Below are positions 40,742-58,658 of a stretch of DNA of 64,000 nt, one piece after another (position 1 is the first letter of the stretch; every line of letters begins with the position of its first letter). Source of the DNA: Candidatus Cloacimonadales bacterium (GTDB lineage: Bacteria; Cloacimonadota; Cloacimonadia; Cloacimonadales; DAONDQ01); the NCBI GenBank assembly GCA_963662275.1, contig OY759316.1, positions 1,472,001-1,536,000 of the forward strand. Reading direction: 5' to 3'. The translations under genes were made by a program, and so were the position numbers. The notes beneath the pieces are model-generated. The model was not told where the DNA came from and searched no databases. It was given only the letters and a program-made list of their open reading frames with translations.

Positions 40742-43693
40742 TTACTTCATCAGGATGATCTTCCTTGAGGATAGTGAATTCCCATCTTTCACCTGGACAA
40801 GATAAATACCACTCGGACAGGTTACATTCTTTGCATCAGTTCCATCCCAGGATAGATTATATTCACCCGCATTCTTCATACCTGTAGCCAATGTACGAAT
40901 GTGCTGTCCTTTCAGATTATAAATTTCAATCTTCACATCGGATGTTTTTGTGATCGAGAAGGGAATACTCACTGATTGATTGAAAGGATTTGGATACATA
41001 TTTTGTAAAACAAGATTCCCATTACTCGTGGGGGTTTGAGGAGTGTCAGGTGTACCTTTCCCTTTTAAGGTCAGGTTGAATGTTGGATAGAAACCGACTC
41101 GGGCTTCTTTTCCGCCACTGACATCAGTAATACCAAATACAAGGGTATGATCATCAGCCATCATATCAGTATTTCTGACTTTGATCGTAATTTCCTTTGG
41201 AGTTGAACATCCAGCCGGGAAAACAACTGTTTGTGGGACAAAGTTCTCAACTTCATTTGAATCCCCATCCCTGAAGATGATCTGGGCAATTGTGGGTTCA
41301 GTTGGGCTTGGATTTTCTATCGAAACATTCATTGTTACAGTACCGGTTTCCTTATCGAAGGCAGCACTTGCAGGACTGAATCCTAACACTGTATTAGTCG
41401 CTTTCGTTCCGTATACACTGGATACATATTCCGGGTGATCAATATACGGATTGCGATTTGTCAGGAAGGTCTTGATAGATGCATTACGATTAAATTCCCA
41501 GGTACTAACCGGATCAGCAGTATTCCAAGCGAGCATCGTGGGCAGCATATCCACACCGTCTATACTTAGGCTCATCTCGTAACGAGTGTTGAAATACAAC
41601 AATGCCCTAGCGCAATCACCTTTGTGTTGGGCTGATGGTTCAAACACAGTCTGTCCTGCTGCATTTGTTCCCCGTTTGCTGACATAGCCATTATATGAAG
41701 AATAGGTTGTTGTTTGAGTTGTTACTACACCATAGGGTATATTTCCCCTGGAAGAATTAACACCGGAGTTAGTAGGGAAAAGATGATGCAGATCCGCTGT
41801 CTTTTGATTCACTTCACTTGTGCCCATCCAGCTTTGGCAGAATGTATGCTCTGTATTTGGATCCGTACTGCCGGTATAGGTTGTTCCAACAGTATAATTC
41901 TGACCGATATACACACATTGAATAACATTTCCGGCTGTCAAATCGAGGGTTTGATACAGATACACTTTTGCTCCTGAATAACTTGAATATGTATTTGTAG
42001 AAATCAGATTATGTAAGCCTGTCTTTAATGCTGCACCGGTAAGACCTGCAACAGGAGTGTAATAACCATTGAATGGATCAGTGGCAGTGGTAGTCGCAGA
42101 AATAGTATTCGAGGAAGCACTCGTGCCGTAAGTGTTATAGGCTCGTACTCTGTAATAGTATATAGTAGAAGCACTTAATCCTGTCACTGATTTGGTTGTT
42201 GTTGTGACTACAAGATTATTGAAACCGGTGACGAAAGTACCGAATGAGTTACTTGTGGAGACATCCAGGTAATAACCTGTTGCACCTGTGGAAGCATTCC
42301 AGTTTGCCGTGAAACTGTTCAATGTAATCGAAGAGGCTGTTATCGCTACAGGTGCGGATGGTGCTGAACCGGCAGTACTGGTAGTAAAAGATAGATCAGT
42401 TCCATATGCAGTGCCAGCGCTGTTGGTTGCATAAGCTCTGACATGATAGAGCGTTGATGCAGTTAATCCTGTAATAGCGCTTGTGAATGTACCAGTACCA
42501 GTACCATTGGTTGTATGGTTTCCTGTTGCTACTGGATTTGCTGTCGTAGCCCAGCATACACCTTTTGCCGTGACAGAAGCTCCGCCATCAGCGGTAACAT
42601 TTCCTCCACTTGTGGCAGTTGTTGATGTGATTGCAGAGGGAGTAGTCGTTGAAACTGTCGGTATGACTGCTGCAGGGGTACTTGTAGTAAAAGACAGATC
42701 AGTTCCATAAGCAGTACCAGCGCTATTGGTCGCATAAGCTCTGACATGATAGAGCGTTGATGCAGTTAATCCTGTAATAGCACTTGTGAATGTACCAGTA
42801 CCAGTGCCGTTTGAAGTATGGCTTCCTGTTGCTACGGGATTTGCTGTTGTAGCCCAGCATACACCTTTTGCTGTGACAGAAGCTCCGCCATCAGCGGTAA
42901 CATTTCCTCCACTTGTTGCTATGGTTGTTGTTATTGCTGATGGAGTAGTAGTCGATACTGTCGGCACAGTAGCTGCAGCTCCTGCGGCAGTGATGGATAC
43001 ATTATCAATACCCAATCCTTGGGCATTTGTGGTTGTAGTACCGGATGTGACTGAATAATTCCAGGCAAGATATAGACTGCTTCCAGTTGCTAGTGTTGTC
43101 GTGAGTGTTTTACTCGTAACATTTGAAGTACTCCCGGGAGCAGTGGTGAAACCATTATTATCGGCATTGGCAGCAAAAGAAGTCAGGAAGTTTGCTCCCG
43201 CTGATGTCCATGTTGTTCCATTCGTTGAATAATACATTTGAATTGAATAACCAGCAGCATTTGAGCCATTCCGATATTTCTCAACACCATAAGAAATTGT
43301 GAAACTTGAAATAGAAGATGTTCCATTATTAGTTAATATCGTATATAGATTACCGCTAACTGTACCAGTTCCAGATGAAATCCAGCCTACAGCGCGATCT
43401 GTGGCAGTACTGGCAACACCGGCTCCATAATTGTAAATTCCGTTTCCAGCAGTGGAAGACATAGAATTTCCTGCTGATAGAGCTGTCGCTGTTAAAGCTG
43501 CAGAATATGTCCCCAATGTCCGAGCTGTAGTATTCTTATCTACCTTCCATCCGGTAGGTAAGGTTGCGGTAGCGCTTGTTCCAATGGTGAACCCTTCGGT
43601 TATGTTACCACCGGCACTTATGTTTATGGCTGAAAGGGTGGATATCGTAACCATAAAAATAAGAAGAATATAAACTAGATTCTTTTTCAACAC
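40742..43693 (-). CDS. Extracellular endonuclease I (EndA-like) with FN3 repeats and FlgD-like C-terminus
   Basis: NTEHTFCQSW, DLHHLFP..VNSSRGN, KGDCARALLYF, RNPYIDHPE; 303-bp internal duplication; likely GTG start at 43693. Confidence 0.85.
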   Translation of the reverse strand: MLKKNLVYILLIFMVTISTLSAINISAGGNITEGFTIGTSATATLPTGWKVDKNTTARTLGTYSAALTATALSAGNSMSSTAGNGIYNYGAGVASTATDRAVGWISSGTGTVSGNLYTILTNNGTSSISSFTISYGVEKYRNGSNAAGYSIQMYYSTNGTTWTSAGANFLTSFAANADNNGFTTAPGSTSNVTSKTLTTTLATGSSLYLAWNYSVTSGTTTTNAQGLGIDNVSITAAGAAATVPTVSTTTPSAITTTIATSGGNVTADGGASVTAKGVCWATTANPVATGSHTSNGTGTGTFTSAITGLTASTLYHVRAYATNSAGTAYGTDLSFTTSTPAAVIPTVSTTTPSAITSTTATSGGNVTADGGASVTAKGVCWATTANPVATGNHTTNGTGTGTFTSAITGLTASTLYHVRAYATNSAGTAYGTDLSFTTSTAGSAPSAPVAITASSITLNSFTANWNASTGATGYYLDVSTSNSFGTFVTGFNNLVVTTTTKSVTGLSASTIYYYRVRAYNTYGTSASSNTISATTTATDPFNGYYTPVAGLTGAALKTGLHNLISTNTYSSYSGAKVYLYQTLDLTAGNVIQCVYIGQNYTVGTTYTGSTDPNTEHTFCQSWMGTSEVNQKTADLHHLFPTNSGVNSSRGNIPYGVVTTQTTTYSSYNGYVSKRGTNAAGQTVFEPSAQHKGDCARALLYFNTRYEMSLSIDGVDMLPTMLAWNTADPVSTWEFNRNASIKTFLTNRNPYIDHPEYVSSVYGTKATNTVLGFSPASAAFDKETGTVTMNVSIENPSPTEPTIAQIIFRDGDSNEVENFVPQTVVFPAGCSTPKEITIKVRNTDMMADDHTLVFGITDVSGGKEARVGFYPTFNLTLKGKGTPDTPQTPTSNGNLVLQNMYPNPFNQSVSIPFSITKTSDVKIEIYNLKGQHIRTLATGMKNAGEYNLSWDGTDAKNVTCPSGIYLVQVKDGNSLSSRKIILMK

Positions 43694-43987
43694 ATTACAC
43701 CTCTCTTTTGATTTTTTTAGAATGTTCTGGTTTGACAAGTAACCACTTGAATCACATATGTTAATTGTGACATTTTGTGAAACCTTGCAAAAATAATGCA
43801 AGGATTTTATTTAGAAAAGATCATTTATTTTGTGTCTTGTGAATTTGATTAACCAAGAATCTGAAAGAAATCACGAATAAACCAGGAAAATTATGTAATT
43901 TCAAGATTGTTATATTTCGATTAACTTATTTATACATTTGTACATATCGTATCAATTCTCTCATCTGAATTGCACATGAAAACCAAA

Positions 43988-44016
43988 GCAGAGACGCCCA
44001 ACTTAAGCGTCTCTAC
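43988..44016. repeat. REP palindrome, degenerate copy of 31469
   Basis: GCAGAGACGCCCAACTTAAGCGTCTCTAC. Confidence 0.75.
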
Positions 44017-44146
44017 ACTGTGAACAATCCTTCATGACCACTAATTACTAGATAATATTCTATCAAAAAGGCAATTTACGAGATATCTCTTGACATATAG
44101 AAACATATTGTTTTAATCAAGACATATTTAGAGAAAGGAGTTTCTT

Positions 44147-45403
44147 ATGAAAAGATTTGGTAGTGTAATTTTAATCTGCTTATTACCACTTATATTAATC
44201 GGTATGAGTACAGATTGGATGAATCAGATTCGTACTCCAAACAATCCTTCAAATGTTGCTAATATCTTAAGTAAAATTGCGGATTTGAATGGCAGAGACA
44301 ATGCTCGTACCTGGATGCAATCGGAAGTCATTAATCAAAGTTGGACGACCGAATGGACAGGTACATTCCGGTCTGTATATACTTATAATAGTCAGGGTAA
44401 TATGGCAACAGTAACTTACTTTTTACCTGAAACCAATACTTCTGGATGGTCAACTTTCCAAAGAATTACTTATACTTATAATGAACAGAATTGGATGACG
44501 ATGGTATACTATGAATCGTTCTCTACTGGCAACTGGTTACCTCAATACCGCTTATTAGTGACATATACCGGTGAATTTTCTGCGGAGTCTGTTTCGCAAA
44601 ACTGGTCAACTGATACTAATTCCTGGACTGATACTTATAAGACTTTTATGACATACAATGCCTCTCATCAATTGGCCGAAAGCCTAATGCAATCCTACCA
44701 GGGAGAAAACCTGGTAAATGTGTCCAAGACAATTTATACCTATGAGAATGGGCATTATACAGAATTGTTAAGCCAGAGCTGGGTGAATTCTGTATGGGTT
44801 AACGGTGGAAGACAGCTTTTTACATATAATGGAAATGATGAAGTTTTGTATTATTATCAAGCTTGGACAAACGATGCTTGGCAAAACACAACAAAGAGAA
44901 CCACTAGTTATATTAGTCCCAGTCATCCAGAAGTTATTATCATTTATAATTGGGGTGCAGATATTACAGATTGGCAATTGTCTCAGCAATCACTCTATAT
45001 GTATGATGCAGATAATAACTATTCGATCATTTTGTCACAAAACTATACTGGTGGAACTTGGATCGATGCATCCAGGCAACTGTTTTCCTGGTCGAATATT
45101 ACAGGGAACGATGAGCAGATTTCTTCTGCTCCTGTAATGAGCTCTAGTAACTACCCCAATCCTTTTCACCAGGCTACATCGATTTGTTTTCAATTAAAAA
45201 AACAAGCGAGTGGGAATATTGAAATTTATAATATCAAAGGACAGAAAGTCAAAATAATTCCTTTCCAGTTTCAGTCAGGCAGTCATGAATTGAAATGGGA
45301 TGGTAGAGATGAGATGAATCGGGAAACTAGTTCCGGTATTTATTTGTATCATGTTAATGTCAATCATGTTCCTGTGATACGAAAAATGGTCAAGTTATTC
45401 TGA
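44147..45403 (+). CDS. Secreted Tyr/Trp-rich repeat protein with FlgD-like C-terminus
   Basis: Repeated YTY...Q.W....W units; NYPNPF...IYNIKGQKVK...WDGRD. Confidence 0.8.
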   Translation: MKRFGSVILICLLPLILIGMSTDWMNQIRTPNNPSNVANILSKIADLNGRDNARTWMQSEVINQSWTTEWTGTFRSVYTYNSQGNMATVTYFLPETNTSGWSTFQRITYTYNEQNWMTMVYYESFSTGNWLPQYRLLVTYTGEFSAESVSQNWSTDTNSWTDTYKTFMTYNASHQLAESLMQSYQGENLVNVSKTIYTYENGHYTELLSQSWVNSVWVNGGRQLFTYNGNDEVLYYYQAWTNDAWQNTTKRTTSYISPSHPEVIIIYNWGADITDWQLSQQSLYMYDADNNYSIILSQNYTGGTWIDASRQLFSWSNITGNDEQISSAPVMSSSNYPNPFHQATSICFQLKKQASGNIEIYNIKGQKVKIIPFQFQSGSHELKWDGRDEMNRETSSGIYLYHVNVNHVPVIRKMVKLF

Positions 45404-45420
45404 TTTGTAATTCTAGCTAT

Positions 45421-45449
45421 AAAAGTGGGGGCATCATCCCCACTTTTTT
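45421..45449 (+). terminator. Intrinsic terminator
   Basis: AAAAGTGGGG...CCCCACTTTTTT. Confidence 0.8.
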
Positions 45450-46009
45450 ATTCGTAAATGTTTTAATCTCTATTTAATGACTCATAACTGACTTATCTGT
45501 TTATACTAATTTATCTTTGAAGATTCTATATCAAAATAGAATAAAATCCGTTTTATGGACCTCGTTAAGGGTTTATGGTGTTTAATGTTGAATAGCATTT
45601 GTGCAATGATAATTGCAACTATATTTGTATTTCTAGTTTCATTAAATTAGATTTAGTTAAATAAATCTTGACGGTCTATTTGTTTTTTTATAAATAAATA
45701 AAGAGTTTATAATGCTTTTTAAAGTGTATTTAAAGCTCTAGTTAATCTCAATCAAAAAAATAGTTCGTTTACTTCGAAAGTATAATGCATTAGATGCAGA
45801 TGAGATGGTAGCGCAATTTAACTTTACTAATCTGCAGTGAGTGATCAATTGTACAACATGCATATTCTTCAACTGGATGGAACAGATTGGCGAGTACTAC
45901 TAAAGGAAGCGACCAGTAGGAATTTACGATATATAAATCGTTTGTAAAATTTTCAGAGTAAAGTATCTGCAAATAGTGAGCTAGTAAAAAAGTGCGAATG
46001 GAGAGAAGA

Positions 46010-48433
46010 GTGAGTTCCAATATCAGAGGCAAACAATTATTCATAAGCTATTCAAGTTCAGACATAGATTTTGCCAATAATCTATGTCTGATTCTTGAAG
46101 AGAATGGAGTGAACTGCTGGATTGCTCCGCGTGATATTAGACCCGGTTGTTATTGGGATGAAGAAATTAGCTATGCTGCTGATGAATGTAGTGGGTTGGC
46201 ATTATTGTTAAGTGAGAATTCGAATAGATCAGATATTGTGGCGAAAGAAGTAGCATTATTTGCGAGCAGAGGGAAAGCTATATTTCCATTAAGAATTGAA
46301 CCAGTGATACTCTCTAAGAGACTTGAGTTACATTGCAGTTCTCTTCATTGGATTGATTTAAAGGAAGAAGAATTACCCCAATGTGCGATAATGTTAGTAG
46401 ATTCCATAAAACAAAAATTGTGCATTTCAGACAGTGTATCCAATCAGACTGTATCAAGTGGTCAGTATGTTCAATCATCATTACCATTCTCATCCAACCC
46501 GATAGGAAATATGATATCTAGTGAAATCTCGTATAGTAATGCAATTGCCAGATTAGGTATATGTCCTTTGACTTATCATCGAGAAGTACTGATACAAAAA
46601 GGACTAATTGCCTTGAGGAATGGGAAATTCCAAGGTATTTTATTACAGGGCTTACCTGGTTGTGGTAAAACAACCTTGATGGTAGAAATAGCACAGGAAG
46701 TGAAAAGCGATTTTGATATATTTATTAGCTTTCGCTTTAGCGGGCAGCGAGAGATAGATCCCTCTTTCTTCATTTATGAACTAAACAAATGCTTAAAATG
46801 CATAGGTCGTGAAATAGATACCGCAGGGATTCAAAAGGCAGATTTCAGGATTATTTTGCAGAACTTGGTATCCCGATTATCAGATCAAAAGGTATTGCTT
46901 TTGCTTGACTCAGTCGATATGGCACCACTTGGAGTCATCGACACATTACTTAGTGCGTTACCAGTTGCACCACATGTAAGAACAATAATGACAGCTCAAC
47001 TCAGAGTCACTGGAAAATTAGGAGCAACTGCCATAGATGTTCCTCAGTTATTAATTGAAGAGACTGAGGAATTAATCCATCTATTTTCTGATTTGACGGG
47101 TATAGAAATAGATGTGAGTGATTTTATTACAAAATTACCTAAATATGTTGTCTGTAATCCATCTGCTCTGATGGTTGTATTAAGGAATCTTATTGACATC
47201 CCCTTGGAATTTCTCTTACCTGATAATCTGCCTGAGGAATCGAGAGTCGCTTTTGAGATGAATAAGCATATAATAGAATCATTGACCAGCGAAGAAAAAG
47301 ATCTCTTATGTTTAATCGCATTTTTTGATGATGTGAAATTGATTTCGGTTCGAGAAGCGCTTTTAATTACATTTCCTATCAATTTTGGTCAATTAATCGG
47401 TAAGTTAGTAGATCGCTCACTTATCACACGTACTGGAGACAGTTTCTATGTAGCTTCAATTGTGTGGGATGGTCTTGTCGAGGTTTGTGGTGATCGTATT
47501 CAATCTATTGCCCAGAAATTAGCCACAGCGGTTGAATCTTCAACACAAAAAATTCAAAGATTGAACTCTGATGAGGCAGATAACTTAGCACTTCCTATAT
47601 GTGCAGTGATTCATAAACTTCATGAACTGAAAATGTGGGATTTACTGATAACTCTAACCTGTGAAAAATTCTTGGAAACCTTGAACATTAGAGGTTTTTG
47701 GAAAGAATACTGGTATATTTTGCGACTGTTATTCGATTCTTATCGAAGTTCTGGTAATTTATTAGCTGGAGCTGGGATTGGGTTTAGGATTCTCAGAAAA
47801 GCTTTCCAGATGAAGGATGAGGCACTTGGGAAAAAGATTCTTCAAGAACTTTCACAAGTAATACTGATTGAGGATTCGCTGAATTATGCTGAACTGTTGA
47901 GCCATACTGCTTTATATACTGAACGAAGTGTAAATCCGGAACAAGCTTTAAAAGAACTTGAGGAAAGCTGCAGAATTAGAGAAAAATTAGGAGATTCGAT
48001 AGGATTGGCAATCGTAAAAAAATTAATCGGGAATATCTACCTTAGAAAAGGTGAATTTACTAAAGCGAGCGAATATTACAAAGAATCGTTAGGACTCTTG
48101 GAAAAGTTACAGGATGAGTTCAAGCAATCTCTGGAAACCGAAACCAGCTTAGCATTGTGTGATTTGATGTCTGGTCATGTTGAAGTGGCAGAAAATAGGC
48201 TTCGTGAAGTCATCGAGATGTGTCACAGAACTGGTTATATGGCTGGTTTACCTCGGGCATATTATCATTTAGTATTGGTGATGAATCAACTTGGCCGATT
48301 TCTAGAGGGTGTTCATTACGCAGAGCTAGCGATTATCGAAGCGAAGAAAACTTTTTCGGATATTGCCATAGCTGCGAATCTGTTGCTATCTTTTTGTCAG
48401 CAAAAAATAGTACATGAAGGAGAAGAAAAATGA
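46010..48433 (+). CDS. TIR domain - STAND/NB-ARC-like NTPase - TPR protein
   Basis: FISYSSSD, WIAPRDI.PG, SDIVAKEV (TIR Glu), Walker A GLPGCGKTT, Walker B LLLLDSVD, C-terminal TPRs; GTG 46010 after GGAG (ORF track start 45992). Confidence 0.85.
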   Translation: MSSNIRGKQLFISYSSSDIDFANNLCLILEENGVNCWIAPRDIRPGCYWDEEISYAADECSGLALLLSENSNRSDIVAKEVALFASRGKAIFPLRIEPVILSKRLELHCSSLHWIDLKEEELPQCAIMLVDSIKQKLCISDSVSNQTVSSGQYVQSSLPFSSNPIGNMISSEISYSNAIARLGICPLTYHREVLIQKGLIALRNGKFQGILLQGLPGCGKTTLMVEIAQEVKSDFDIFISFRFSGQREIDPSFFIYELNKCLKCIGREIDTAGIQKADFRIILQNLVSRLSDQKVLLLLDSVDMAPLGVIDTLLSALPVAPHVRTIMTAQLRVTGKLGATAIDVPQLLIEETEELIHLFSDLTGIEIDVSDFITKLPKYVVCNPSALMVVLRNLIDIPLEFLLPDNLPEESRVAFEMNKHIIESLTSEEKDLLCLIAFFDDVKLISVREALLITFPINFGQLIGKLVDRSLITRTGDSFYVASIVWDGLVEVCGDRIQSIAQKLATAVESSTQKIQRLNSDEADNLALPICAVIHKLHELKMWDLLITLTCEKFLETLNIRGFWKEYWYILRLLFDSYRSSGNLLAGAGIGFRILRKAFQMKDEALGKKILQELSQVILIEDSLNYAELLSHTALYTERSVNPEQALKELEESCRIREKLGDSIGLAIVKKLIGNIYLRKGEFTKASEYYKESLGLLEKLQDEFKQSLETETSLALCDLMSGHVEVAENRLREVIEMCHRTGYMAGLPRAYYHLVLVMNQLGRFLEGVHYAELAIIEAKKTFSDIAIAANLLLSFCQQKIVHEGEEK

Positions 48434-48690
48434 GTGAAACTTTAGATGATATCGCATTACGAAGGCTCATTACTGATGAGATGCAAAAAAGGGTATTAGA
48501 AGTGATAAGTTGTAACGGGTGGTTAAATTTGGATAGTAGATCAAACTATGAATCTATTCCAGAGTTTATTGCTTCAAACGGTCATGATATCAAAAAAGTA
48601 CAAATGATTTTTGAAGACATTTGGGTTCATTTTAACACTGAAGTTGTTTTACCACTATCAACCGAGATTGCTCCATATTTTTCTGGATAA
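48430..48690 (+). CDS. 86-aa hypothetical protein or peptide precursor candidate
   Basis: ATGA overlap with the upstream stop; 9-nt gap to the next gene. Confidence 0.7.
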   Translation: MSETLDDIALRRLITDEMQKRVLEVISCNGWLNLDSRSNYESIPEFIASNGHDIKKVQMIFEDIWVHFNTEVVLPLSTEIAPYFSG

Positions 48691-48699
48691 TAAATCACA

Positions 48700-50628
48700 A
48701 TGAAGAATTTTGACAAGCTTACTAAATTGCTTATTCATGCAGGACTTAATAGTCCCTACTATGCCGATAAGATATCAATAAATCAAGATACTCCCCCTGA
48801 GGCTATAGAATCTTATCTAAATTCAATACCAATTCTTAATAAAAGAGATGTTAGACAAAAAAAGCACAGAATGCTGTCATCTATTGCTGATCTTTCTGAG
48901 ATTAAAAGACTACAAACTACAGGAACTACCGGTGAGCCTCTTGATATATTTGTTGATAAGTCATTTATCAATAATGAAAATCTTCTTTTCGGTAAGCATA
49001 TCACGCGATGTCTTAGAAATTCCGATTGGACTTCAAAAATAACCTATTACCTTCAGCTACATGCTAGTGCAACTTCAAATTGTATGCCTGCAATATGGAA
49101 TCCAAACAGCTACGTCGTGAAATGGAACCTTGCACGAGCCTGGCAAGCGACGGATAATCATTTCCTAGAGTACCTGGACAGAATCAATGATTGTGTTGTA
49201 ACTACAATGCCATCCGTAGCAGATTTATTATGCAGGAGAATTACTGAAGCAAAAGCGATTGGGCGAATAAAACCTTTACTTGTGATTTGTTCTGGTGAAT
49301 CACTCTCAGAAAAAGTAAGAGATAAGATTCAAAGTGCTTTTCAATGTCCTGTTACATCATTATATACAATGACAGAATCTGGAATAGCGGCTTTTGAAAT
49401 AGAAAATGGATTGTATGATGTGGAAAGTGATTCGGTATTTCTTGAAATATTAGATGAGAATGCAAAACGAGTTAATCCTGGTGTAGAAGGAAACATTATT
49501 GTGACCGTCCTGAATAATTTCATCATGCCATTAATCAGGTACCAAACTGGTGATAGAGGTAGTTGGACAGATAACGGGCTATTAAGAATCAGCGAAGGAA
49601 GAATTCCGTACCATTTGATAACAACTTCAGGTGGGACTGTCAATTCAGTAAGATTCGCAAAAATACTGGCATCTTTGAATGTCGAAAAGTATGCTTTTAG
49701 CCAGGATGAGTCGGGCGCTATCACTTTCTCCTATTTTTCGACTGATAACCAATTAGATTCTATGAGTTGCAATGTTATTCAGGCAGCAATTTTAGGTTCA
49801 ATTGGACCGGGTATGAAAGTAATATTTAAGAGGTTAACTGAACCGGAGAAAGTATCGGAATATGATAATCGAAAAGTATCATTAAATCAAATTTCTGTGA
49901 AGTCCGCTGAACAGATTGGACCAAATATTGAGGAAGTTTCGAGTTGGTTAAAGAGTGTTCTTAGTAATGAACCTCAAATATTTTCTGCTGTTCTGACCGG
50001 TTCTTTTTTAGATTTGACTGGTTCAACCCGATATAGTGATATTGACCTAGTTATTTTTGTAGAAGGGAATCCGATAGCTACTCGTTGGTTAATGCTTACA
50101 AAGAAGCTAAAAAAAAGAATTCCTTCAATTTCTGTACATATAGATACCCAGAAAGACTTACATAAACGCTCTCCCATGCTTGCATGTCGTTTGCTACGAG
50201 AACACAGTCAAGTTATAGGGTATCCCATCGAAGATGTTGTGCTATTGCCTGATACAAAACTCATCAAAGAACAAGGTGTTTATCGAAGCCAGGAAGTTCT
50301 TGGGCTTTTACAGTTACAACTGGCAAATGTTGAACAAGATAGATTGAATCCGATTCGTGAAGCATGGATTACACGGAAGTTCCTGATAGATATTTTTCGA
50401 TATAGATATATCCTCCAGGGAGAGCAAGAAACTTCTTTATCTTACATTGTTCAGAAAATGCAAAATGATCCTATCATCAATATTCAGGAACTCAAGTGCA
50501 TTGATAATATGCATCAAACTGCCTGCGAATATATTCCGCCACTCTCAGATTATGAACAAATTTCATCTTGGTATTATGTAGCATTAAAACTTATTAAAGA
50601 TGTTCAATGTGAAATTATGAATAATTGA
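48700..50628 (+). CDS. PaaK/CapK-like adenylate-forming enzyme fused to a pol-beta-type nucleotidyltransferase domain
   Basis: PILNK, TTGTTGEP, SGE, YTMTESG, MPLIRYQTGD, EGR; then LTGS...SDIDLVIFV and a helical C-terminus. Confidence 0.8.
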   Translation: MKNFDKLTKLLIHAGLNSPYYADKISINQDTPPEAIESYLNSIPILNKRDVRQKKHRMLSSIADLSEIKRLQTTGTTGEPLDIFVDKSFINNENLLFGKHITRCLRNSDWTSKITYYLQLHASATSNCMPAIWNPNSYVVKWNLARAWQATDNHFLEYLDRINDCVVTTMPSVADLLCRRITEAKAIGRIKPLLVICSGESLSEKVRDKIQSAFQCPVTSLYTMTESGIAAFEIENGLYDVESDSVFLEILDENAKRVNPGVEGNIIVTVLNNFIMPLIRYQTGDRGSWTDNGLLRISEGRIPYHLITTSGGTVNSVRFAKILASLNVEKYAFSQDESGAITFSYFSTDNQLDSMSCNVIQAAILGSIGPGMKVIFKRLTEPEKVSEYDNRKVSLNQISVKSAEQIGPNIEEVSSWLKSVLSNEPQIFSAVLTGSFLDLTGSTRYSDIDLVIFVEGNPIATRWLMLTKKLKKRIPSISVHIDTQKDLHKRSPMLACRLLREHSQVIGYPIEDVVLLPDTKLIKEQGVYRSQEVLGLLQLQLANVEQDRLNPIREAWITRKFLIDIFRYRYILQGEQETSLSYIVQKMQNDPIINIQELKCIDNMHQTACEYIPPLSDYEQISSWYYVALKLIKDVQCEIMNN

Positions 50629-50925
50629 CTTTTTTGTTTTAAAAGAAGAAAAAAAATAAGATTATGATTAGCTACGAGTCTATGTTTAAATATAACTAAT
50701 CCATCCAAACTCATAATAATTCAAAAAGTGGCATAAATAAATGAGGAAACCACGGCAATAATATGCGAGAAAAACGCAAAAAGACATTTTTATTAATTCT
50801 GTAGATAAGGGGGGCAGGAATAAGAGAGAAATGGTAATAGTTAAGAAGGTGTAGGCTGTGACGGCATGACGGCAATTTTAACAGTTTTTGAGAATAAGAG
50901 AAATTTTAAGAAGAAAAGGGAATTG

Positions 50926-51028
50926 TGCATAAATAAACGAGAAATTTAAGGGCTATTTACTGCATAAATAAACGAGAAATTTAAGGGCTATTTACTGCAT
51001 AAATAAACGAGAAATTTAAGGGCTATTT
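50926..51028. repeat. 35-bp tandem repeat x3
   Basis: TGCATAAATAAACGAGAAATTTAAGGGCTATTTAC at 50926, 50961 and 50996. Confidence 0.95.
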
Positions 51029-51454
51029 TTGTGAAAGTACGATATACAAGACAATGGATAATACTATTATAATATCAAATTGAATCCACATAGTATCAGA
51101 AATACGATTTATAGCTTTGGTTTGTTGAGCATTCATATATAAAGCAAATTCACGATCGGTCATTTTACTAATGTCGGGAGCTTGGTATCCTGGAACTGTG
51201 ATGTTTTCAAGCTTGTTATCTCTACCTGCAGCAATTAACCCAGCTTTGACATCTACACCATTATCATCCAGGAGAGTAGCAACCTGGTTCTTATAAATCA
51301 CCACCATTCCCTTATCTGTATTAACAACAAAACTCCTGGCATCATTTGATTTGATGGTTCCTGTGATAATGCGTCCATCTGTGGTGGTAAAGACAAGAGC
51401 ATTGGATATAACAACGAATGTGAACAGGATAAAGATTGAAATAAGCTTCTTCAT
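51023..51454 (-). CDS. Exported protein with C-terminal TM, likely co-transcribed with the repressor
   Basis: Signal peptide, SD GGAGG, 9 nt downstream of the repressor stop. Confidence 0.75.
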   Translation of the reverse strand: MKKLISIFILFTFVVISNALVFTTTDGRIITGTIKSNDARSFVVNTDKGMVVIYKNQVATLLDDNGVDVKAGLIAAGRDNKLENITVPGYQAPDISKMTDREFALYMNAQQTKAINRISDTMWIQFDIIIVLSIVLYIVLSQK

Positions 51455-51463
51455 GATTTCCTC

Positions 51464-52135
51464 CTAATAGCGCCTAAAACAGAACATGAGAACACCGATA
51501 ATTTCGATGTCCCGGGTTTCTTCCCAATGAAATACAATGGGATCGTAGCATTGATTGATAGGGATCAGCAAAGTGGTTTCGCATTTATGGTTATAGATTA
51601 GTCTCTTCAAGGTAATACCACCATCCACCCGGAAGGCACAAATCTTATGGTCCAGAGCCAGCCTGTCAAAGTCACTATTGATGAGGATGATATCCCTATG
51701 CATAATCTCCGGTTCCATGCTGGACCCATGCACTCTAAAACAGATGATCTTATCTGGATGTGGGATCAATGACTTCTCCAGGGTAATGTGCATTAGGGGT
51801 TCCTGGTTGTTATATATTTCAATGGGCGGACCCGCGGCTATCTCCCCCACAACCGGAATACTAATAGTACGCGCGCGAGGGGATGGAAGATTTAAGATTG
51901 AAGATTGAATATCTTGGGGATCGGAAAGGAACATGGAGCCTTCCCCGGTGAGAAGCCAGTTGATATTGACGTTATAGACTTTTGACAGGGATTTAAGAAA
52001 ATCGGATTCAGGGGTTGTTTTATCATTAATATATCGACTGATAGCAGCTTGGGTATAGCCTAAAGCTTGCGAAAAATCAACTTGATTCAAATTATTTTCA
52101 AGACGTATCTTATTGATACGCTTACCAATGCACAT
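51464..52135 (-). CDS. CI-like phage repressor (XRE HTH plus S24 peptidase)
   Basis: LNQVDFSQALG.TQAAISRY, NINWLLTGEG, IAAG cleavage site, GSSMEP, TLKRL. Confidence 0.92.
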   Translation of the reverse strand: MCIGKRINKIRLENNLNQVDFSQALGYTQAAISRYINDKTTPESDFLKSLSKVYNVNINWLLTGEGSMFLSDPQDIQSSILNLPSPRARTISIPVVGEIAAGPPIEIYNNQEPLMHITLEKSLIPHPDKIICFRVHGSSMEPEIMHRDIILINSDFDRLALDHKICAFRVDGGITLKRLIYNHKCETTLLIPINQCYDPIVFHWEETRDIEIIGVLMFCFRRY

Positions 52136-52151
52136 CTTTAACCCCTTTTTA

Positions 52152-52203
52152 TATACAGTTCAGTATATTTAATTATTGACATATATACTGAGCTGTATAA
52201 AGT
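52152..52203. promoter_or_regulatory. Divergent promoter/operator region
   Basis: Inverted 17-mers TATACAGTTCAGTATAT (52152) and ATATACTGAGCTGTATA (52183) flank TTGACA (52176). Confidence 0.7.
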
Positions 52204-52266
52204 CTGTCTTATGTATGACGTGAAGGCAGTAATAAGTCAAGGAAAATTTATAAAGTGAGGTTTACT

Positions 52267-52512
52267 ATGGAGATAAAGAAAACGTACACACGAGAGCAAA
52301 TCAAGGCAGCAATGGCGTTGAAGCGATTAAACGTCTATAAATTGGCTGCTAAACTTCAATTAAGCAGCAGGCAGACCAACAGATTGATTTCCTGCAACAA
52401 CAATCAAGTATCTGAACGTAGTAATGATCAAATGATAGAGGCTCTACAGCCTCATTTGGAAGCGATCGCCAAATTAGAAGCTAAATTAGCTAAGAAGGAG
52501 AGAGTAGCATGA
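52267..52512 (+). CDS. Ner/Cro-like small HTH protein
   Basis: EQIKAAMALKRLNVYKLAAKLQLS; divergent from the repressor; ATG after GAGGT. Confidence 0.65.
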   Translation: MEIKKTYTREQIKAAMALKRLNVYKLAAKLQLSSRQTNRLISCNNNQVSERSNDQMIEALQPHLEAIAKLEAKLAKKERVA

Positions 52513-53282
52513 TTCAGCGATATACTAATAAGCAATTGCAGGTTTCACTTGGGATCAGCAGACAGGCAGTGGATAAACGTGCTCTCAAGGAAGGCTGGAA
52601 GTCAGAAATCGTTTATGAACGTGGTACGCACAATAAATATTATTGGGTGGACCTGCAAAGCAACCAAAGCAACCAAAGCAACCAAAGCAACCAAAGCAAC
52701 CAAAGCAACCAAAGCAACCAAAGCAACCAAAGCAACCAAAGCAACCAAAGCAACCAAAGCAACCAAAGCAACCAAAGCAACCAAAGCAACCAAAGCAACC
52801 AAAGCAACCAAAGCAACCAAAGCAACCAAAGCAACCAAAGCAACCAAAGCAACCAAAGCAACCAAAGCAACCAGTTGACTCCCGAAGAGCGGGCGGAGCT
52901 AGATGCAATCAATGTTGTACTGCGTAAGAGGGTATGGTGGAAGCCATTTAAGAACGAAAAAGGACTATATCCATACCGATTGAATGATGGACCTGTGGTT
53001 TTGGCGACTTTTAGCACAATGGAATCGTTCAAAGACTATTTTGGACCCAATGACAAAGTAAAGTTTTTAGTCGATAATGAATATCAGGAAATCAAGATGA
53101 TCCGCTTTGATATGCCTGATATTATGGTGAGTTTAGAGCCGATGGATATGACCAACACCGAGGAACTGGAGACCTTCCTGGCTATCGGCTTGGAAAACTG
53201 TTTGATATGGATGGATGAGGAAGCAGGAAGCAACCTGAAGGATGCTACTACCGATGCTACAACCAAGAGGGAGGAATCATGA
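52509..53282 (+). CDS. Mu-type DNA-binding domain protein with a (QSN)24 tract
   Basis: LGISRQAVDKRALKEGW resembles a Mu HTH. Confidence 0.65.
   Translation: MIQRYTNKQLQVSLGISRQAVDKRALKEGWKSEIVYERGTHNKYYWVDLQSNQSNQSNQSNQSNQSNQSNQSNQSNQSNQSNQSNQSNQSNQSNQSNQSNQSNQSNQSNQSNQSNQSNQSNQLTPEERAELDAINVVLRKRVWWKPFKNEKGLYPYRLNDGPVVLATFSTMESFKDYFGPNDKVKFLVDNEYQEIKMIRFDMPDIMVSLEPMDMTNTEELETFLAIGLENCLIWMDEEAGSNLKDATTDATTKREES
52656..52871 (+). repeat. Perfect 9-bp microsatellite (CAAAGCAAC) x24, in frame
   Basis: 216 bp / 9 = 24 copies. Confidence 0.95.
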
Positions 53283-54058
53283 TTTATAGCTTAATTGGTT
53301 GGATTTTAGCGGTCATCTTCTTTTGTCGGATGATCTGGAGCGAGATGCACTTTTGCAAGCGTTATGATCAGATGATCCTGGGTCGTGAAATCGACAAGCG
53401 GAAGTATGAAGCTGATCTGAAAGGGAAAGAAACGGAGATGGCAGAGATTAGAACGCATCTTTTCAACGCAGAAAGAATGCTGGATGATTTCCGGGCGGGG
53501 ATTACGTACCAGGTACCGGAGTTCATGAAAGAAGATGTTAACCACGGAACAGTCGAAAGCAGAGCAGAGGAAATATCTGATGATGAGCCAATAGGAGTTG
53601 ATGAAGGGTGTGAGGTATTTCACATCAGTCCCAAGAATCCATTACCACGTGGGCATGAATTAGAAAGAGCTTATGAAAAACCTACATATGAAGAATTAGG
53701 TGATATCAACATATATGGGATTTCTGGAAAGTTACTTATGTTCATCGAAGCGCACGAGGAAACAGCACTGGAATTGATTGATCAGTATTCTATCACTCTC
53801 GAGAGATCTGAATGGTTTGAAATAGACAGCAGTCTGCAGACCGACATCATCCATAAGATACTATTTGCAACGGCTGCGACATCCACACACGAAGCACCAC
53901 ACCTGATGACTATATCATTACCAATCCATGAATGGAGACAAATCAAAGACGAACTGAATATAAAAAATCCGCTCAGTCCGCAGGATACGCACATTACGCA
54001 GAGTCCGCAGACTATTGACCCGTCATTAGATACAATGCATATAGAAGCACAGGCTTAA
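53279..54058 (+). CDS. Phage hypothetical protein (N-terminal TM, coiled coil)
   Basis: GGAGG SD, ATGA coupling. Confidence 0.6.
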   Translation: MIYSLIGWILAVIFFCRMIWSEMHFCKRYDQMILGREIDKRKYEADLKGKETEMAEIRTHLFNAERMLDDFRAGITYQVPEFMKEDVNHGTVESRAEEISDDEPIGVDEGCEVFHISPKNPLPRGHELERAYEKPTYEELGDINIYGISGKLLMFIEAHEETALELIDQYSITLERSEWFEIDSSLQTDIIHKILFATAATSTHEAPHLMTISLPIHEWRQIKDELNIKNPLSPQDTHITQSPQTIDPSLDTMHIEAQA

Positions 54059-55157: not shown

Positions 55158-55451
55158 ATGATAGTTTCACAAGTAATTAAAGAGCGGATAACCCTATATG
55201 TCTTGAAAAGTACGACATGGGAAGATGCTCCCCTGCAAGTTGAAATCAAAGGGAATGTGTCAGAACTGACTAAGCTGAGAAATATGATCGACTGTGCTAT
55301 CAGCTATGTTGCCGGCAAAACCAACGGCTTTGATGAAGATGATATTGATACACTGCACTTTACCGTGGAAGCCTATTCAGATGATAAGAAGCTGCGTGAG
55401 AAAATTGATAAAGGACCATCGCCAGAGAATCCTTTTGGATGTGGAAAATGA
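55158..55451 (+). CDS. Phage hypothetical protein
   Basis: SD AAAGGA; overlaps the transposase start. Confidence 0.6.
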   Translation: MIVSQVIKERITLYVLKSTTWEDAPLQVEIKGNVSELTKLRNMIDCAISYVAGKTNGFDEDDIDTLHFTVEAYSDDKKLREKIDKGPSPENPFGCGK

Positions 55452-57793
55452 GCTGGCTCAGTGTAAAAGACTTTGCTGCTATGATGGGGATATCCCGCCA
55501 GGCGGTGCTGAAAGGAATTGCGAAAGAGAAATATACGACCAGGGAAGTAACTGGTAGAAATCAGCATGGTGTTAGTTATGAGATACTGCATGAAAAAGAG
55601 AGAAAAAGCGACAACCAAATCATAGAAGCGACAACCGACAACCGACAACCGACAACCAAAAGCGACAACCAACAGGTTGGAATCGGCGTTATGAGCGGAG
55701 AAGGCAGCGACAACCTGGCAGAAGGGAATAGGGAGAAGGGAGTAGGGAATAGTTCGGAACAGATAGACCCCCCTACCCCCCTTGCCAAGGGGGGATTATC
55801 TGATTTACCCGCTGACACTTCGACTGCGCTCAGTGCAAGCGTGGGCGCTACAGACGGTAAGCTAAAGCATACCACTGCCGAAACGAGGCTACTTGAGAAG
55901 GAACAGAAGCTATTTGACGCTCATGAGACGGTGGAAAAGGAAAGGGCGTGGAGTCGGAAAGAGATCGTGGAGATCTACCGGAATGAACGTCTGGATGTGA
56001 AGTTTGAGGGCGTGAGCCTTGCAGCTATCGATGATCTTTTCCAAAAAGCGCTGGATAATGGTGAAATCTGCAAAAAGCAAATGCTGATCCTGGGCGTTCA
56101 GGTTCTTTCATTGAAAACTATCAAAAAATGGGATAAAAAGCTGAGAGATGGCAAAGATGCAAAATATCCGTTGTGCCTGATCGATCAGAAGAAGAATAAG
56201 AGCGGACGGAAGCCTTTGGAAGTATCTCCTGAGCTGAAAAGAGATATAGAATTGATGGCACTTTCCACACATGGGCTGGACGGTTCCACAATTTTCAGGG
56301 CTATTCAGAGTAAGGCAGATGCAGGTTTATATGTAAATCCCTATCAGCCCAGGACTGTGCTTCTGAAAGTTCAGGAATATCGCAATGACAGATACCTGGC
56401 TAATATGGCAGCCGGTGCCAAGAAGTTCAAAAATGGTTCAAAACCGCACATTTGGCGCAAAGCAGATGCCTATCCCCGTGATATTTGGGAAAGTGATGGT
56501 CACCGGTTCAATGCGTTCGTACAATCGCCGTTCTGGTTTCACAATAATCAGAGTTTCAGGCTTCTAGTGAGACCAATGGTCATTATGTTTCTTGATAGGT
56601 GTACCGGATTGATCGCTGCTCATCGCGTTTTTATTAGTGAGAACTTTCATATTGTTAAGACTACCTTTGCTGATGGTGTGAGCAAATGGGGCGTTCCCAA
56701 AGTTGTCATGACAGACAAGGGCGGCGGATACGATAATATCTATACACGTCCGGGATATTATGCCGGACAGAAACGAGTCAATGAGACCGTAAAACGTGCA
56801 CGTGAACTATTTGATAACGGCTATCCGGGGTTCTTCCAGAGTTACGGAGTGGATAGACAGATCATCTGCATCCCAGGGAACCCGGAATCAAAGTCGATTG
56901 AACCGATTTGGAAGCATGTATTCAGTGAATTTGAAAAGAGTCTTTGGGCATATACCGGAGGCTGCATCGATGAACGCCCGGAATACATGCAAATGACAGC
57001 TAAGGCACTGTTTAAGAAATACGGCGATCATATTCCTACCTGGGAGACGTTCTGCGGTCTTGTGGATGCCTGGGTAAATGAATGGAACAATAAGACGCGT
57101 CCTTCGCTCGTGAGCGCTAACGGCAAGATGTTTTCACCTGCAGAGATGTATCGTGAATTCATGGCAATGGATGAAGTGATCATCCCATCTTATGAACAAA
57201 TCATCAGATTATCCTACTTTCCAGTGAAGCGCGTGATCCAGCGTGACGGTATCGAACTGAACGGACTGATCTACCGGCATCCTCAATTTGCCAGCTACCA
57301 GGGCTATCAGATGGAAGTGGAATACGATGAAAACGATATCTACCAGATCTACGTAGCAACCATGAAAGGTGAGAAGTGGGCTTCCAGCGCTAAGCTGATG
57401 ATACCAGGTAGCCTGATCGATCAGGAACAATCTTCATTAGCAATCGCTTCAAGGGCACATTATATGAAGGAAATGGAAGCTGCCTACCTGCAGAGACGGG
57501 AAGCTCACCAACGTAATGAAGCTGAATATCAGAAGTACTTAGCAGGGAGACCGTCTGAAGGCGGTGCTACGCTAAACGAGATCGTACATGATCAAAGCAT
57601 TATCCAGGATGATATCAAGCTAATTGGGATAAGTGATCATATTCGGACGCAACGGCAACCTAAAGGATGCCACCACCGGGATGGCAGGGATCTGGCAGAG
57701 GTGCAGCCGGAGTGGAATGCCCTCGTGGAAGAAGCAATTGCAGAAGGGAACAGGGAACAGGGAACAGGGAACAGGGAACAGGGAACAGCTTAG
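55448..57793 (+). CDS. MuA-like DDE transposase
   Basis: N-terminal HTH (WLSVKDFAAMMGISRQAV), WESDGH, MTDKGGGY, PGNPESKSIEPIW, RVIQRDGIELNGLIY. Confidence 0.88.
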   Translation: MSWLSVKDFAAMMGISRQAVLKGIAKEKYTTREVTGRNQHGVSYEILHEKERKSDNQIIEATTDNRQPTTKSDNQQVGIGVMSGEGSDNLAEGNREKGVGNSSEQIDPPTPLAKGGLSDLPADTSTALSASVGATDGKLKHTTAETRLLEKEQKLFDAHETVEKERAWSRKEIVEIYRNERLDVKFEGVSLAAIDDLFQKALDNGEICKKQMLILGVQVLSLKTIKKWDKKLRDGKDAKYPLCLIDQKKNKSGRKPLEVSPELKRDIELMALSTHGLDGSTIFRAIQSKADAGLYVNPYQPRTVLLKVQEYRNDRYLANMAAGAKKFKNGSKPHIWRKADAYPRDIWESDGHRFNAFVQSPFWFHNNQSFRLLVRPMVIMFLDRCTGLIAAHRVFISENFHIVKTTFADGVSKWGVPKVVMTDKGGGYDNIYTRPGYYAGQKRVNETVKRARELFDNGYPGFFQSYGVDRQIICIPGNPESKSIEPIWKHVFSEFEKSLWAYTGGCIDERPEYMQMTAKALFKKYGDHIPTWETFCGLVDAWVNEWNNKTRPSLVSANGKMFSPAEMYREFMAMDEVIIPSYEQIIRLSYFPVKRVIQRDGIELNGLIYRHPQFASYQGYQMEVEYDENDIYQIYVATMKGEKWASSAKLMIPGSLIDQEQSSLAIASRAHYMKEMEAAYLQRREAHQRNEAEYQKYLAGRPSEGGATLNEIVHDQSIIQDDIKLIGISDHIRTQRQPKGCHHRDGRDLAEVQPEWNALVEEAIAEGNREQGTGNREQGTA
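57746..57787 (+). repeat. Perfect heptamer (GGGAACA) x6 at the 3' end of the transposase
   Basis: Read directly from the sequence. Confidence 0.95.
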
Positions 57794-57929: not shown

Positions 57930-58658
57930 GTGAAAGAAAATCAAATGATCCAAACTACTAACGTGGAAAAAATCCTTGATGTGCTTGAAGAAGGCAGGAA
58001 TCGACCGAAGCATGAAGAACCTGGATTCATTGTTGTGTATGGTCCTAAGGGTACCGGTAAATCCAGGGCTTTTCATACCCTGGCAATCAAAAACAACTGC
58101 ATCTACATTCGCTTATCTGCCAAAGACACAGCCCGGAGCTTTGCACAGAAGCTTCATCATCTTTTGGAATACTATGACAGCAACAAGAAGGTACCTGAGC
58201 TTGATACAACTGACGTCCCGAGTCATGGGGTAAGTATTACCATGGTTGACCGCTGCGTGAGGTATCTTGCCAAGCATCCTGATATGGAAATCTACATCGA
58301 TGAGTTTGACTATGCTTTGGAAGCAAGCAAGCACGATATATTAGATACTATCAGGGATCTCATAGACCGAACCATGGCGCTGTTTGTGTGTGTGGGGATG
58401 GATAAAGTACTTGAGCTTCTTGAAAAGCGTTCCAGGGCACTTTTTGACCGCATGATGGCAAGCCGTGAACTTTCACCATGGACTGAAGCAGATACAATCA
58501 AAGTAGCGAAAGGGATCTCTTCAGCAACCATGACAGACTCTTTAGCCAGAGAAATCCACATGAATAAGAATGCCAAAGGCGGATCTGCCAGACAGGTGAT
58601 TCACCAGGTAAGCGCTTATGAAGCAACTTACAAAGCAGCACAGGAACATAAATCATGA
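57930..58658 (+). CDS. MuB-like AAA+ ATPase
   Basis: GPKGTGKS, IYIDEFD, DTIRDLID, VCVGM; SD AGGAGG. Confidence 0.88.
   Translation: MKENQMIQTTNVEKILDVLEEGRNRPKHEEPGFIVVYGPKGTGKSRAFHTLAIKNNCIYIRLSAKDTARSFAQKLHHLLEYYDSNKKVPELDTTDVPSHGVSITMVDRCVRYLAKHPDMEIYIDEFDYALEASKHDILDTIRDLIDRTMALFVCVGMDKVLELLEKRSRALFDRMMASRELSPWTEADTIKVAKGISSATMTDSLAREIHMNKNAKGGSARQVIHQVSAYEATYKAAQEHKS

Follow-up and report, generated by a model that had tools for sequence, protein, structure and literature searches.

The subject of this analysis is a compact three-gene module in the genome of a Candidatus Cloacimonadales bacterium (assembly GCA_963662275.1, contig OY759316.1), located in a stretch of 64,000 nucleotides (positions 1,472,001 to 1,536,000 of the forward strand) that is referred to here as the window and in whose coordinates all positions are given. 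The module comprises three co-directional open reading frames (ORFs), g1, g2, and g3, which encode, respectively, a TIR-STAND-TPR protein, a small acidic protein, and a fusion of a PaaK-type adenylate-forming enzyme with an AadA-like nucleotidyltransferase (NTase). An earlier note on this DNA had described three tightly coupled genes lying between a terminator and the end of a prophage in DNA more AT-rich than its neighbors, and the sequence bears out each of these points: g1 and g2 overlap in ATGA, g2 and g3 are spaced by 9 nt, a terminator-like hairpin is present on the left, and the left end of a Mu-like prophage could be placed at ~50926, so that the module ends ~300 bp outside the prophage (Table 1). 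The AT-richness is modest but real, with a GC content of 35.3% in the module (45448-50925) against 39.05% in the genome, where 4.1% of 5.5-kb segments are as low or lower. We rate the locus as a candidate STAND/NLR immune-type module with an unprecedented enzymatic partner.

Table 1. Features of the three-gene module and of the adjoining prophage (window coordinates; aa, amino acids; pLDDT and pTM, predicted local and global model confidence).
Feature	Position	Strand	Details
Intrinsic-terminator-like hairpin	45421..45447	+	11-pair stem with 5 G-C pairs, then T run; left boundary of module
AT-rich intergenic leader	45448..45991	+	presumed promoter region; ~28% GC in 45500-45999
g1 (TIR - NB-ARC-like STAND ATPase - TPR sensor)	45992..48433	+	813 aa, GTG start
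g1 TIR domain	46040..46366	+	aa 17-125; Pfam TIR_2, 65.8 bits vs cutoff 28, 6.5e-18
g1 E86 codon	46247-46249	+	catalytic-type Glu (AKEV)
g1 NB-ARC-like NTPase core	46616..47089	+	aa 209-366; NB-ARC, 31.2 bits vs 23.5
g1 C-terminal TPR sensor block	47684..48430	+	aa ~565-813; TPR_12 at 678-743, 39.4 bits vs 30.1
g2 (small acidic protein)	48430..48690	+	86 aa, net charge -7, three-helix, no family
g3 (ligase-NTase fusion)	48700..50628	+	642 aa; model pLDDT 89.9, pTM 0.88
g3 N-terminal part	48700..49884	+	aa 1-395; complete PaaK-type adenylate-forming enzyme, both subdomains
g3 C-terminal part	49915..50616	+	aa 406-639; ANT(3'')(9)/AadA-like, NTase domain and helical domain
S24/HTH repressor (prophage)	51464-52135	-	
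MuA (prophage)	55439-57793		
MuB (prophage)	57930-58658		

The hairpin at the left boundary closes a gene for a secreted protein with a type IX secretion system (T9SS) sorting domain, and the neighbors of that gene are of the same kind. In the leader that follows, promoter-like sites are no commoner than in shuffled sequence, and a promoter was not established by the scan. The sequence of the module is identical in the sequencing runs of two studies, and among the contigs of the runs compared no clear variant lacking the module was seen. In one run (X4), there are two contig records of low depth that match the window only to the right of ~50677 and are unrelated to it on the left; their agreement is weak (0.68). 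The position is 49 nt past the g3 stop codon and may reflect a strain variant that reveals where the module ends on the right. A genome of the same genus (G100) gave no match to positions 44000-54000 of the window.

The product of g1 is a tripartite protein in which all three parts score above their Pfam cutoffs, and the motifs that the earlier note had pointed to can be read in its translation, including Walker A (GLPGCGKT, aa 220-227), Walker B (LLLLDSVD, aa 302-309), and a glutamate (E86) at the catalytic position of the TIR domain. E86 is invariant in the four TIR-bearing STAND proteins compared (g1 and its three closest relatives) and aligns with the glutamate of CLEEL in Roq1 and of CLDEL in RPP1, which we take to be the catalytic residue of TIR domains. 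The same four proteins also keep, without exception, G220...K226/T227 in Walker A and D306/D309 in Walker B. NAD-cleaving (NADase) activity is predicted for g1. A profile of g1 and these relatives finds PH0952 (6mfv) as the best solved STAND protein (E 1.5e-16, profile positions 228-729), with further matches to Roq1, RPP1, RPV1, RUN1, AbTIR, SARM1, AfsR, Apaf-1, and CED-4, and g1 itself gives weak matches to AfsR as well as matches to TPR_MalT.

Conservation across seven g1-family sequences is highest in the TPR block, which contains all 17 invariant residues, among them R599, R602, K603, Q606, S637, H638, G680, R685, and R755, and a conserved basic helix face is formed by R599-x-x-R602-K603-x-x-Q606. 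The N-terminus varies within the family, being a TIR domain in the window and in three relatives (P0116-P0118), a DUF7379/Abhydrolase_6 domain in locus L082, and a hydrophobic segment without Pfam match in locus L001. Such a combination of a conserved sensor with interchangeable killing domains corresponds, by analogy, to the pattern of antiviral STAND (Avs, or AVAST) proteins and of nucleotide-signaling effector genes, and the tripartite architecture with swappable N-terminal effectors fits the NLR/Avs-like layout proposed in the earlier note and lends the module the character of a conflict system.

With Avs/AVAST, bNACHT, and TIR-NLR proteins, g1 shares the variable N-terminal effector, the STAND ATPase with intact Walker A and B motifs, the TPR-type sensor, and effector swapping. 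It differs from Avs proteins in that no Avs or NLR model of PADLOC-DB v2 matches it at an expectation value of E <= 0.1, and in having a conserved enzyme pair, g2-g3, alongside. As far as is known, the Avs proteins described to date are encoded by a single gene or work together with protease or effector partners. The best PADLOC match of g1 is the SAVED_TIR model (1e-9), and there is a weak match to ThsB (E 0.012), both limited to the TIR region. Unlike in Thoeris, the TIR domain is here fused to a STAND protein, and no Thoeris effector model of PADLOC matches g2 or g3. MalT-like STAND proteins (PH0952, MalT, AfsR) share with g1 the NTPase and the TPR sensor region, yet g1 has a TIR domain and no DNA-binding output. 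In a systematic TIR survey (10.64898/2025.12.03.692087), TIR domains fused to STAND are set aside as Avs.

The earlier note had read in g3 the motifs of an adenylate-forming domain joined to those of a GS...DID NTase. These motifs are present (TTGTTGEP at residue 73, YTMTESG at 222, YQTGD at 281, GS at 434-435, and SDIDL at 446-450), and both folds were recognized by structure comparison. For the N-terminal part, the Foldseek matches are led by ClxA (5.6e-20), followed by PaaK1, BT_0428, AjiA1, and NatL2 (range 5.6e-20 to 1e-18); the top four reach Z 21.5-23.1 in VIA, and profile matches to PDB entries reach 1.9e-26. For the C-terminal part, VIA finds 7uy4_B (ANT(3'')(9)/AadA; Z 14.6, 213/257 residues, root-mean-square deviation 3.6) and 6sxj_A (AAD(9); Z 13.9, 206/250 residues), to which sequence identity is 12-14%; a phmmer search of this half against PDB sequences returned no NTase at E <= 10. 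Pfam recognizes the AMP-binding domain (33.4 bits vs 29.9), while Polbeta (23.0 vs 26.9) and NTP_transf_2 (18.1 vs 21) stay just under their cutoffs; taken over the Pfam scans, the MNT-type Polbeta score lies between 23.0 and 24.9 bits.

[quoted passage not shown] By fold, this part is a two-domain ANT(3'')(9)/AadA-like protein: CD-NTases are not among the 50 fold matches listed for it, of which ANT(3'')(9) and AAD(9) are the best. The PADLOC cyclase models match g3 weakly and only over the NTase core (2.2e-4 and 0.017), and no HEPN family was detected at E <= 0.1 in g1, g2, or the C-terminus of g3.

In an alignment of 34 family members, the ligase residues G75, Y222, E226, G228, Y281, D285, and R301 do not vary, and T73, G78, and P80 hardly do; among the NTase residues, G434, S435, D447, and D449 are invariant, and R497 and E501 are invariant or nearly so. 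Because these diagnostic residues are so well kept, both active sites look functional. The N-terminal part shares with the PaaK family (PaaK1, BT_0428, ClxA, NatL2, AjiA1) the two-subdomain fold, the core motifs, and R301. It differs from that family by the NTase fusion, by an invariant motif specific to the g3 family (K141-W142-N143), and by scores far under all NCBIfam equivalog cutoffs (DVU_1553, the best, 102 bits vs 300; PaaK, 31.5 vs 646). The C-terminal part shares both domains and the GS...DxD motif with ANT(3'')(9)/AadA and AAD(9), and differs in its low sequence identity and in being fused; this fusion and the STAND context argue against a role of g3 in resistance. A PaaK-like module related to the N-terminal part of g3 also occurs in many proteins of 800-1500 aa (P0157, P0162, P0165, P0166, P0168, P0170, and others). 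There it is preceded by ~540 residues of unidentified N-terminal sequence, and these proteins form a separate, larger fusion family.

Between g1 and g3 lies the gene that the earlier note had labeled a small peptide. The g2 family consists instead of acidic three-helix proteins of 74-152 aa that are predicted to fold. The AlphaFold model of g2 (pLDDT 73.9) shows three helices and a disordered tail, with the last 14 residues at pLDDT < 50. F46, G51, and D53 are invariant and lie at the turn between helices 2 and 3 (family motif F..A.G.D), and five of the six family members are acidic (net charge -5 to -9). Only chance-level matches to g2 were obtained from Pfam, PADLOC, NCBIfam, and PHROGs, and a sequence search returned nothing other than g2 itself. 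Foldseek gave no match at E <= 0.001, the best being epsilon antitoxin at a non-significant E of 2.1, and in a protein atlas the nearest clusters are auto-named 'Immunity protein' (0.87, under the lead threshold of 0.9).

The position of a small protein gene next to that of an adenylating enzyme brings to mind a ubiquitin-like conjugation, in which the PaaK domain of g3 would adenylate the C-terminus of g2 and ligate g2 to a target, comparable to the priming of CD-NTases by Cap2 in type II CBASS. Both g2 of the window and its counterpart in locus L001 end in Gly. However, the C-termini of the family differ (...YFSG, ...FYGS, ...SLPK, ...WLPK, ...IIDG, ...LLPK), and we have set this activation of g2 aside for that reason. 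It is further disfavored by the predicted disorder of the last residues of g2 and by the lack of an E2-, JAB-, or protease-like partner. Enzymes of the PaaK family, moreover, are known to act on small-molecule carboxylates, and the conjugation of g2 is considered highly improbable.

Recurrence of the triplet was examined by genome and metagenome locus scans keyed on the ligase part, from which 79 and 80 loci were kept and only L001 and L080-L082 proved useful. Together with the window and G437, which comes from a sample of 401 actinomycete genomes, they provide six contexts with upstream sequence. In L082, an alpha/beta-hydrolase(DUF7379)-STAND-TPR gene (872 aa) is followed by a 152-aa g2 and a full g3, each overlapping the gene before it. 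In L080, the TPR end of a STAND gene at the contig edge precedes a 74-aa g2 and a full g3, and L001 (Streptosporangium) carries a STAND-TPR gene with a hydrophobic N-terminus (702 aa), a 135-aa g2, and a g3 split by the contig end, its remainder lying on another contig. L081 has an IS200 transposase in the position of g1, before an 83-aa g2 that overlaps a g3 cut at the contig end, and G437 has a full g3 with a small ORF resembling only the N-terminal helix of g2 and a different STAND-like NTPase on the opposite strand. Hence g2 with the F..A.G.D motif stands directly upstream of or overlaps g3 in five of the six loci (all except G437), and a same-strand STAND-TPR gene of the g1 family precedes the pair in four (the window, L080, L082, and L001). 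The neighborhood search that the earlier note had suggested thus finds the triplet again in unrelated genomes. In every locus that has them, the g1/g2 and g2/g3 pairs overlap or abut.

Indirect support for this linkage comes from contig sizes: the g1 relatives P0116 and P0117 lie on contigs equal in size to those of the g3 relatives P0014 and P0008 (175401 and 8081), and a separate 132-aa g2 (P0266) lies on a contig equal in size (12832) to that of the g3 P0270. Two proteins of 783 aa, P0037 and P0267, were considered as natural g2-g3 fusions and rejected. Comparison with the separate 132-aa g2 (P0266) and with a 649-aa g3 of the same 90% cluster reveals that the reading frame shifts, within the final 13 codons of g2, into that of the overlapping g3; they show overlapping frames and no designed fusion, and are therefore not Rosetta-stone evidence. 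Mobile DNA is found at other loci as well, namely the IS200 transposase in L081 and an ISL3 fragment in L082. In L001, genes for a PIN_10 (PIN-like) protein and a DUF433 protein, likely a toxin-antitoxin pair, are located at 3738-5037, just upstream of the STAND-g2-g3 genes.

When the six loci are compared in pairs, sequence identity in the g1 TPR block closely tracks that in g3 (Mantel r 0.957, a value reached only by the identity permutation, 1/720). This divergence in step is as expected for genes inherited together and is by itself no proof of interaction. A chance neighborhood or a decaying remnant without joint function might be suspected in a region crowded with mobile elements and with only six contexts at hand; it is largely refuted by the recurrence of the gene order in distant lineages with overlapping frames, and is also at odds with the intact ORFs and conserved catalytic residues, the in-step divergence of g1 and g3, and the identical sequence in the runs of two studies, so that it is hardly credible. 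That the three genes belong together as a unit is supported by recurrent synteny, overlapping frames, in-step divergence, and their common absence from the other 231 genomes of the phylum (see below).

The g3 fusion defines a genuine family, though a very rare one. When 5.8 billion proteins were searched with a word index, ~50 full-length relatives with 28-40% identity were found, none of them informatively named. Among the best 150 matches of an exhaustive profile search (1.84 billion representatives), ~27 are near-full-length members and ~20 are fragments of the C-terminal half, below which the list holds nothing but ordinary PaaK-like proteins. Neither the C-terminal half of g3 nor the full-length g1 sensor block was found in the other 231 genomes of the phylum, apart from one weak partial match (G214, E 5.9e-4), leaving no convincing case. 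Two of the 401 actinomycete genomes sampled are positive, including the seeding genome G232, and none of 401 cyanobacterial genomes is. Additionally, none of 65 matching plasmid records covers at least 80% of g3, neither of two matching phage records carries the fusion, and no relative of the g3 C-terminal half was found in IMG/VR viral contigs.

This distribution bears on the view that the genes serve something other than immunity, as a metabolic or regulatory cassette in which g3 would make or inactivate a small molecule (e.g., an aryl acid or an aminoglycoside-like compound), g2 would be a carrier or immunity factor, and g1 a MalT/AfsR-like sensor. The closest structures to g3 are indeed biosynthetic or catabolic ligases (ClxA, NatL2, AjiA1, PaaK) and antibiotic-modifying ANT enzymes, g1 has the weak AfsR and MalT-TPR matches mentioned above, and family members occur in the actinomycetes Streptosporangium, Saccharothrix, and Streptomyces. 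However, g1 lacks a DNA-binding domain and its N-termini (TIR, alpha/beta-hydrolase, hydrophobic) are of death-effector types, no biosynthetic genes are found nearby in any locus examined, and the spread of the family is extremely patchy (0 convincing cases in 231 genomes of the phylum, 2 in 401 actinomycete genomes, and 0 in 401 cyanobacterial genomes). Such a cassette appears improbable.

We favor a reading of the locus as a three-gene conflict module, horizontally acquired and centered on an NLR-like STAND protein, that most probably serves anti-phage defense by abortive infection, a role that we infer from its architecture. That such a module works through a signaling mechanism, with the more general conflict-module claim counted in, is assigned a probability of roughly 45%. 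In the mechanism envisaged, g1 would be the executioner, in which the TPR sensor controls the NB-ARC-type ATPase switch. Oligomerization of this switch would activate the N-terminal TIR NADase, or, elsewhere in the family, the alpha/beta-hydrolase or hydrophobic, membrane-type N-terminus that replaces it. g2 and g3 would be an obligate partner pair governing the switch. The PaaK-type site of g3 would form an acyl-AMP from a carboxylate and ATP before passing the acyl group on, and its AadA-type site would transfer a nucleoside monophosphate from a nucleoside triphosphate to a hydroxyl group. Upon infection, g3 together with g2 would make an adenylylated or acylated ligand, either a small molecule or modified g2, which a basic groove conserved in the TPR block of g1 may read, flipping the STAND switch in a manner akin to CBASS, Pycsar, or Thoeris with a STAND receptor. 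The charge complementarity between the acidic g2 proteins (five of six) and the basic helix face of the g1 sensor is consistent with this scheme. In its most specific form, the bifunctional PaaK-ligase/AadA-NTase with its acidic subunit would supply the STAND TPR sensor with a non-canonical messenger of the acyl-nucleotide or aminoacyl-nucleotide type, or with a protein ligand carrying a nucleotidyl group, and would represent a new class of signaling immunity; so stated, the proposal is rather unlikely.

Several observations weigh against a signaling conflict module. Avs-type STAND proteins are known to function without partner genes and to sense phage proteins directly, so that g1 might do without g2-g3, and the usual ligands of TPR domains are proteins or peptides and not small molecules. 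In-step divergence is expected of linked genes with or without an interaction of their products. The contexts are few (six loci) because the scans were swamped by ordinary PaaK genes, and two of them deviate: in L081, the IS200 transposase stands where g1 would be, and in G437, the hhalign probability is only 22% for the NTPase against the g1 family and 44% for the small ORF against g2, with neighbors that are housekeeping genes (MMPL, inositol monophosphatase, PhoX). Proximity to a defense island, which the earlier note had proposed to look for, was not found either: no recognizable defense genes lie beside the module within this window. A complex prediction for g3, g1 (aa 545-813), and g2 as partner scored 0.08 against a mark of 0.32 in a run without controls and gives no verdict in either direction.

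In the main rival reading, the same components are arranged in the opposite sense, with g1 as a self-sufficient, Avs-like sensor and killer that g2-g3 keeps off until infection disables the pair. Such a guard might act by nucleotidylylating or acylating g1 or g2 (like MntA on HepT), by constitutively supplying an inhibitory ligand (like Hailong and Panoptes), or by plain binding (like MalK, MalY, and Aes on MalT). The layout of g1 is that of single-gene Avs/bNLR proteins, and its closest solved STAND protein is the MalT-like TPR-sensor protein PH0952. MalT is a STAND protein switched by a small ligand and held inactive by MalK, MalY, and Aes; inhibition of MalT by enzymes, Hailong, Panoptes, and type VII toxin-antitoxin systems provide precedents. 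The tight translational coupling is also as in toxin-antitoxin pairs, and g2 is small, acidic, and helical like many antitoxins and immunity proteins, a resemblance echoed by its sub-threshold matches ('Immunity protein', 0.87; epsilon antitoxin, E 2.1). However, L081 and G437 have g3 without a co-directional g1-family gene, which is unexpected for an antitoxin-like pair, although L081 looks disrupted by an insertion sequence. Furthermore, g2 has no conserved Ser, Thr, or Tyr that could serve as a fixed nucleotidylylation site, and two intact catalytic modules exceed the needs of inhibition by binding. Control of g1 by such a catch is possible, though the odds are against it.

Compared with described nucleotide-signaling systems (CBASS, Pycsar, Thoeris, type III CRISPR, Hailong, and Panoptes), the signaling module proposed here appears to follow a similar logic, in which the gene of a nucleotide-using enzyme is paired with that of an effector composed of a sensor and a swappable killing domain. 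It differs in having no SAVED, STING, CARF, SLOG, or Macro sensor, so that the receptor would be the STAND-TPR protein, and we know of no counterpart of the adenylate-forming domain of g3 in any of these systems. The statement in the earlier note that no named system has these three parts agrees with the absence of a match in PADLOC, Pfam, NCBIfam, and the literature searched. The available main text and supplement files of a 2026 STAND survey (PMC13581612) name no PaaK, ligase, AMP-binding, or nucleotidyltransferase partner of STAND proteins, and no ligase, PaaK, or adenylating STAND partner appears in the accessible portions of PMC7159879 and PMC8195603 (Kaur et al. 2020, 2021), PMC13092281 (DefensePredictor), and the TIR survey cited above (10.64898/2025.12.03.692087). 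A search of full-text literature for PaaK-type or adenylate-forming ligases with STAND, TIR, NLR, or anti-phage functions returned nothing relevant among the papers listed, and a description elsewhere is possible.

The DNA around the module is rich in mobile elements. The Mu-like prophage is a transposable element of ~35.6 kb that runs past the end of the window to a coordinate of about 86515. Its left end is marked by three 35-bp direct repeats (50926-51030) containing AAATAAACGAGAAATT, the first of which begins at TGCA, and two inverted copies occur at its right end, ~35.6 kb further downstream; these end repeats are presumably transposase-binding sites. No 5-bp target-site duplication was seen (AATTG on the left, AGATA on the right). 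In addition to the genes in Table 1, the prophage encodes DUF3164, an ORF6N anti-repressor-like protein, an N6/N4 DNA methylase, and a C5 DNA methylase. Its early region includes an ORF (52509-53282) with a long perfect run of QSN tripeptide repeats (52656-52873; a 9-nt unit in several dozen copies), across which all six frames are open and which could be hypervariable or slippage-prone. Elsewhere in the window, two identical 443-aa ORFs for a group II intron reverse transcriptase/maturase lie in tandem 2 kb apart (11272-12603 and 13282-14613) with equal Pfam scores. An IS91-family Y2 transposase (Y2_Tnp with a zinc-binding domain) adjoins a tyrosine recombinase/integrase on the minus strand (3806-5821), and DDE transposases are also present. 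A 1850-aa ORF at 20096-25648 has no Pfam match at E <= 1e-5; its neighbors encode a TetR regulator, an amidohydrolase-TPR protein, and a DDE transposase. At 40742-43801 lies the gene of a 1019-aa secreted protein with T9SS sorting, in which an Endonuclease I domain (1.6e-40) accompanies repeated Ig/Fn3-like modules; short-read contigs are broken at 42449-42902 by its internal repeats.

Immunity in bacteria, plants, and animals relies on STAND/NLR proteins as central receptors, and the bacterial cases described so far, to our knowledge, sense phage proteins directly. The ecological weight of the module is small because the family is very rare, and its value lies in the mechanism. An NLR-like TIR protein tied to an enzyme with two nucleotide-transfer sites suggests one of two novelties: NLR proteins may be switched in a new way, through a covalent mark or an endogenous ligand, or phage defense may use a new signaling chemistry. 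Either novelty would broaden the known principles of innate immunity and might lead to a protein modification or small-molecule messenger not seen before. If the signaling scheme is true, g1 would be, among NLR-type receptors, the first to be switched by a ligand that is endogenous and enzyme-made and not by a pathogen protein, with TIR, hydrolase, and membrane outputs being interchangeable.

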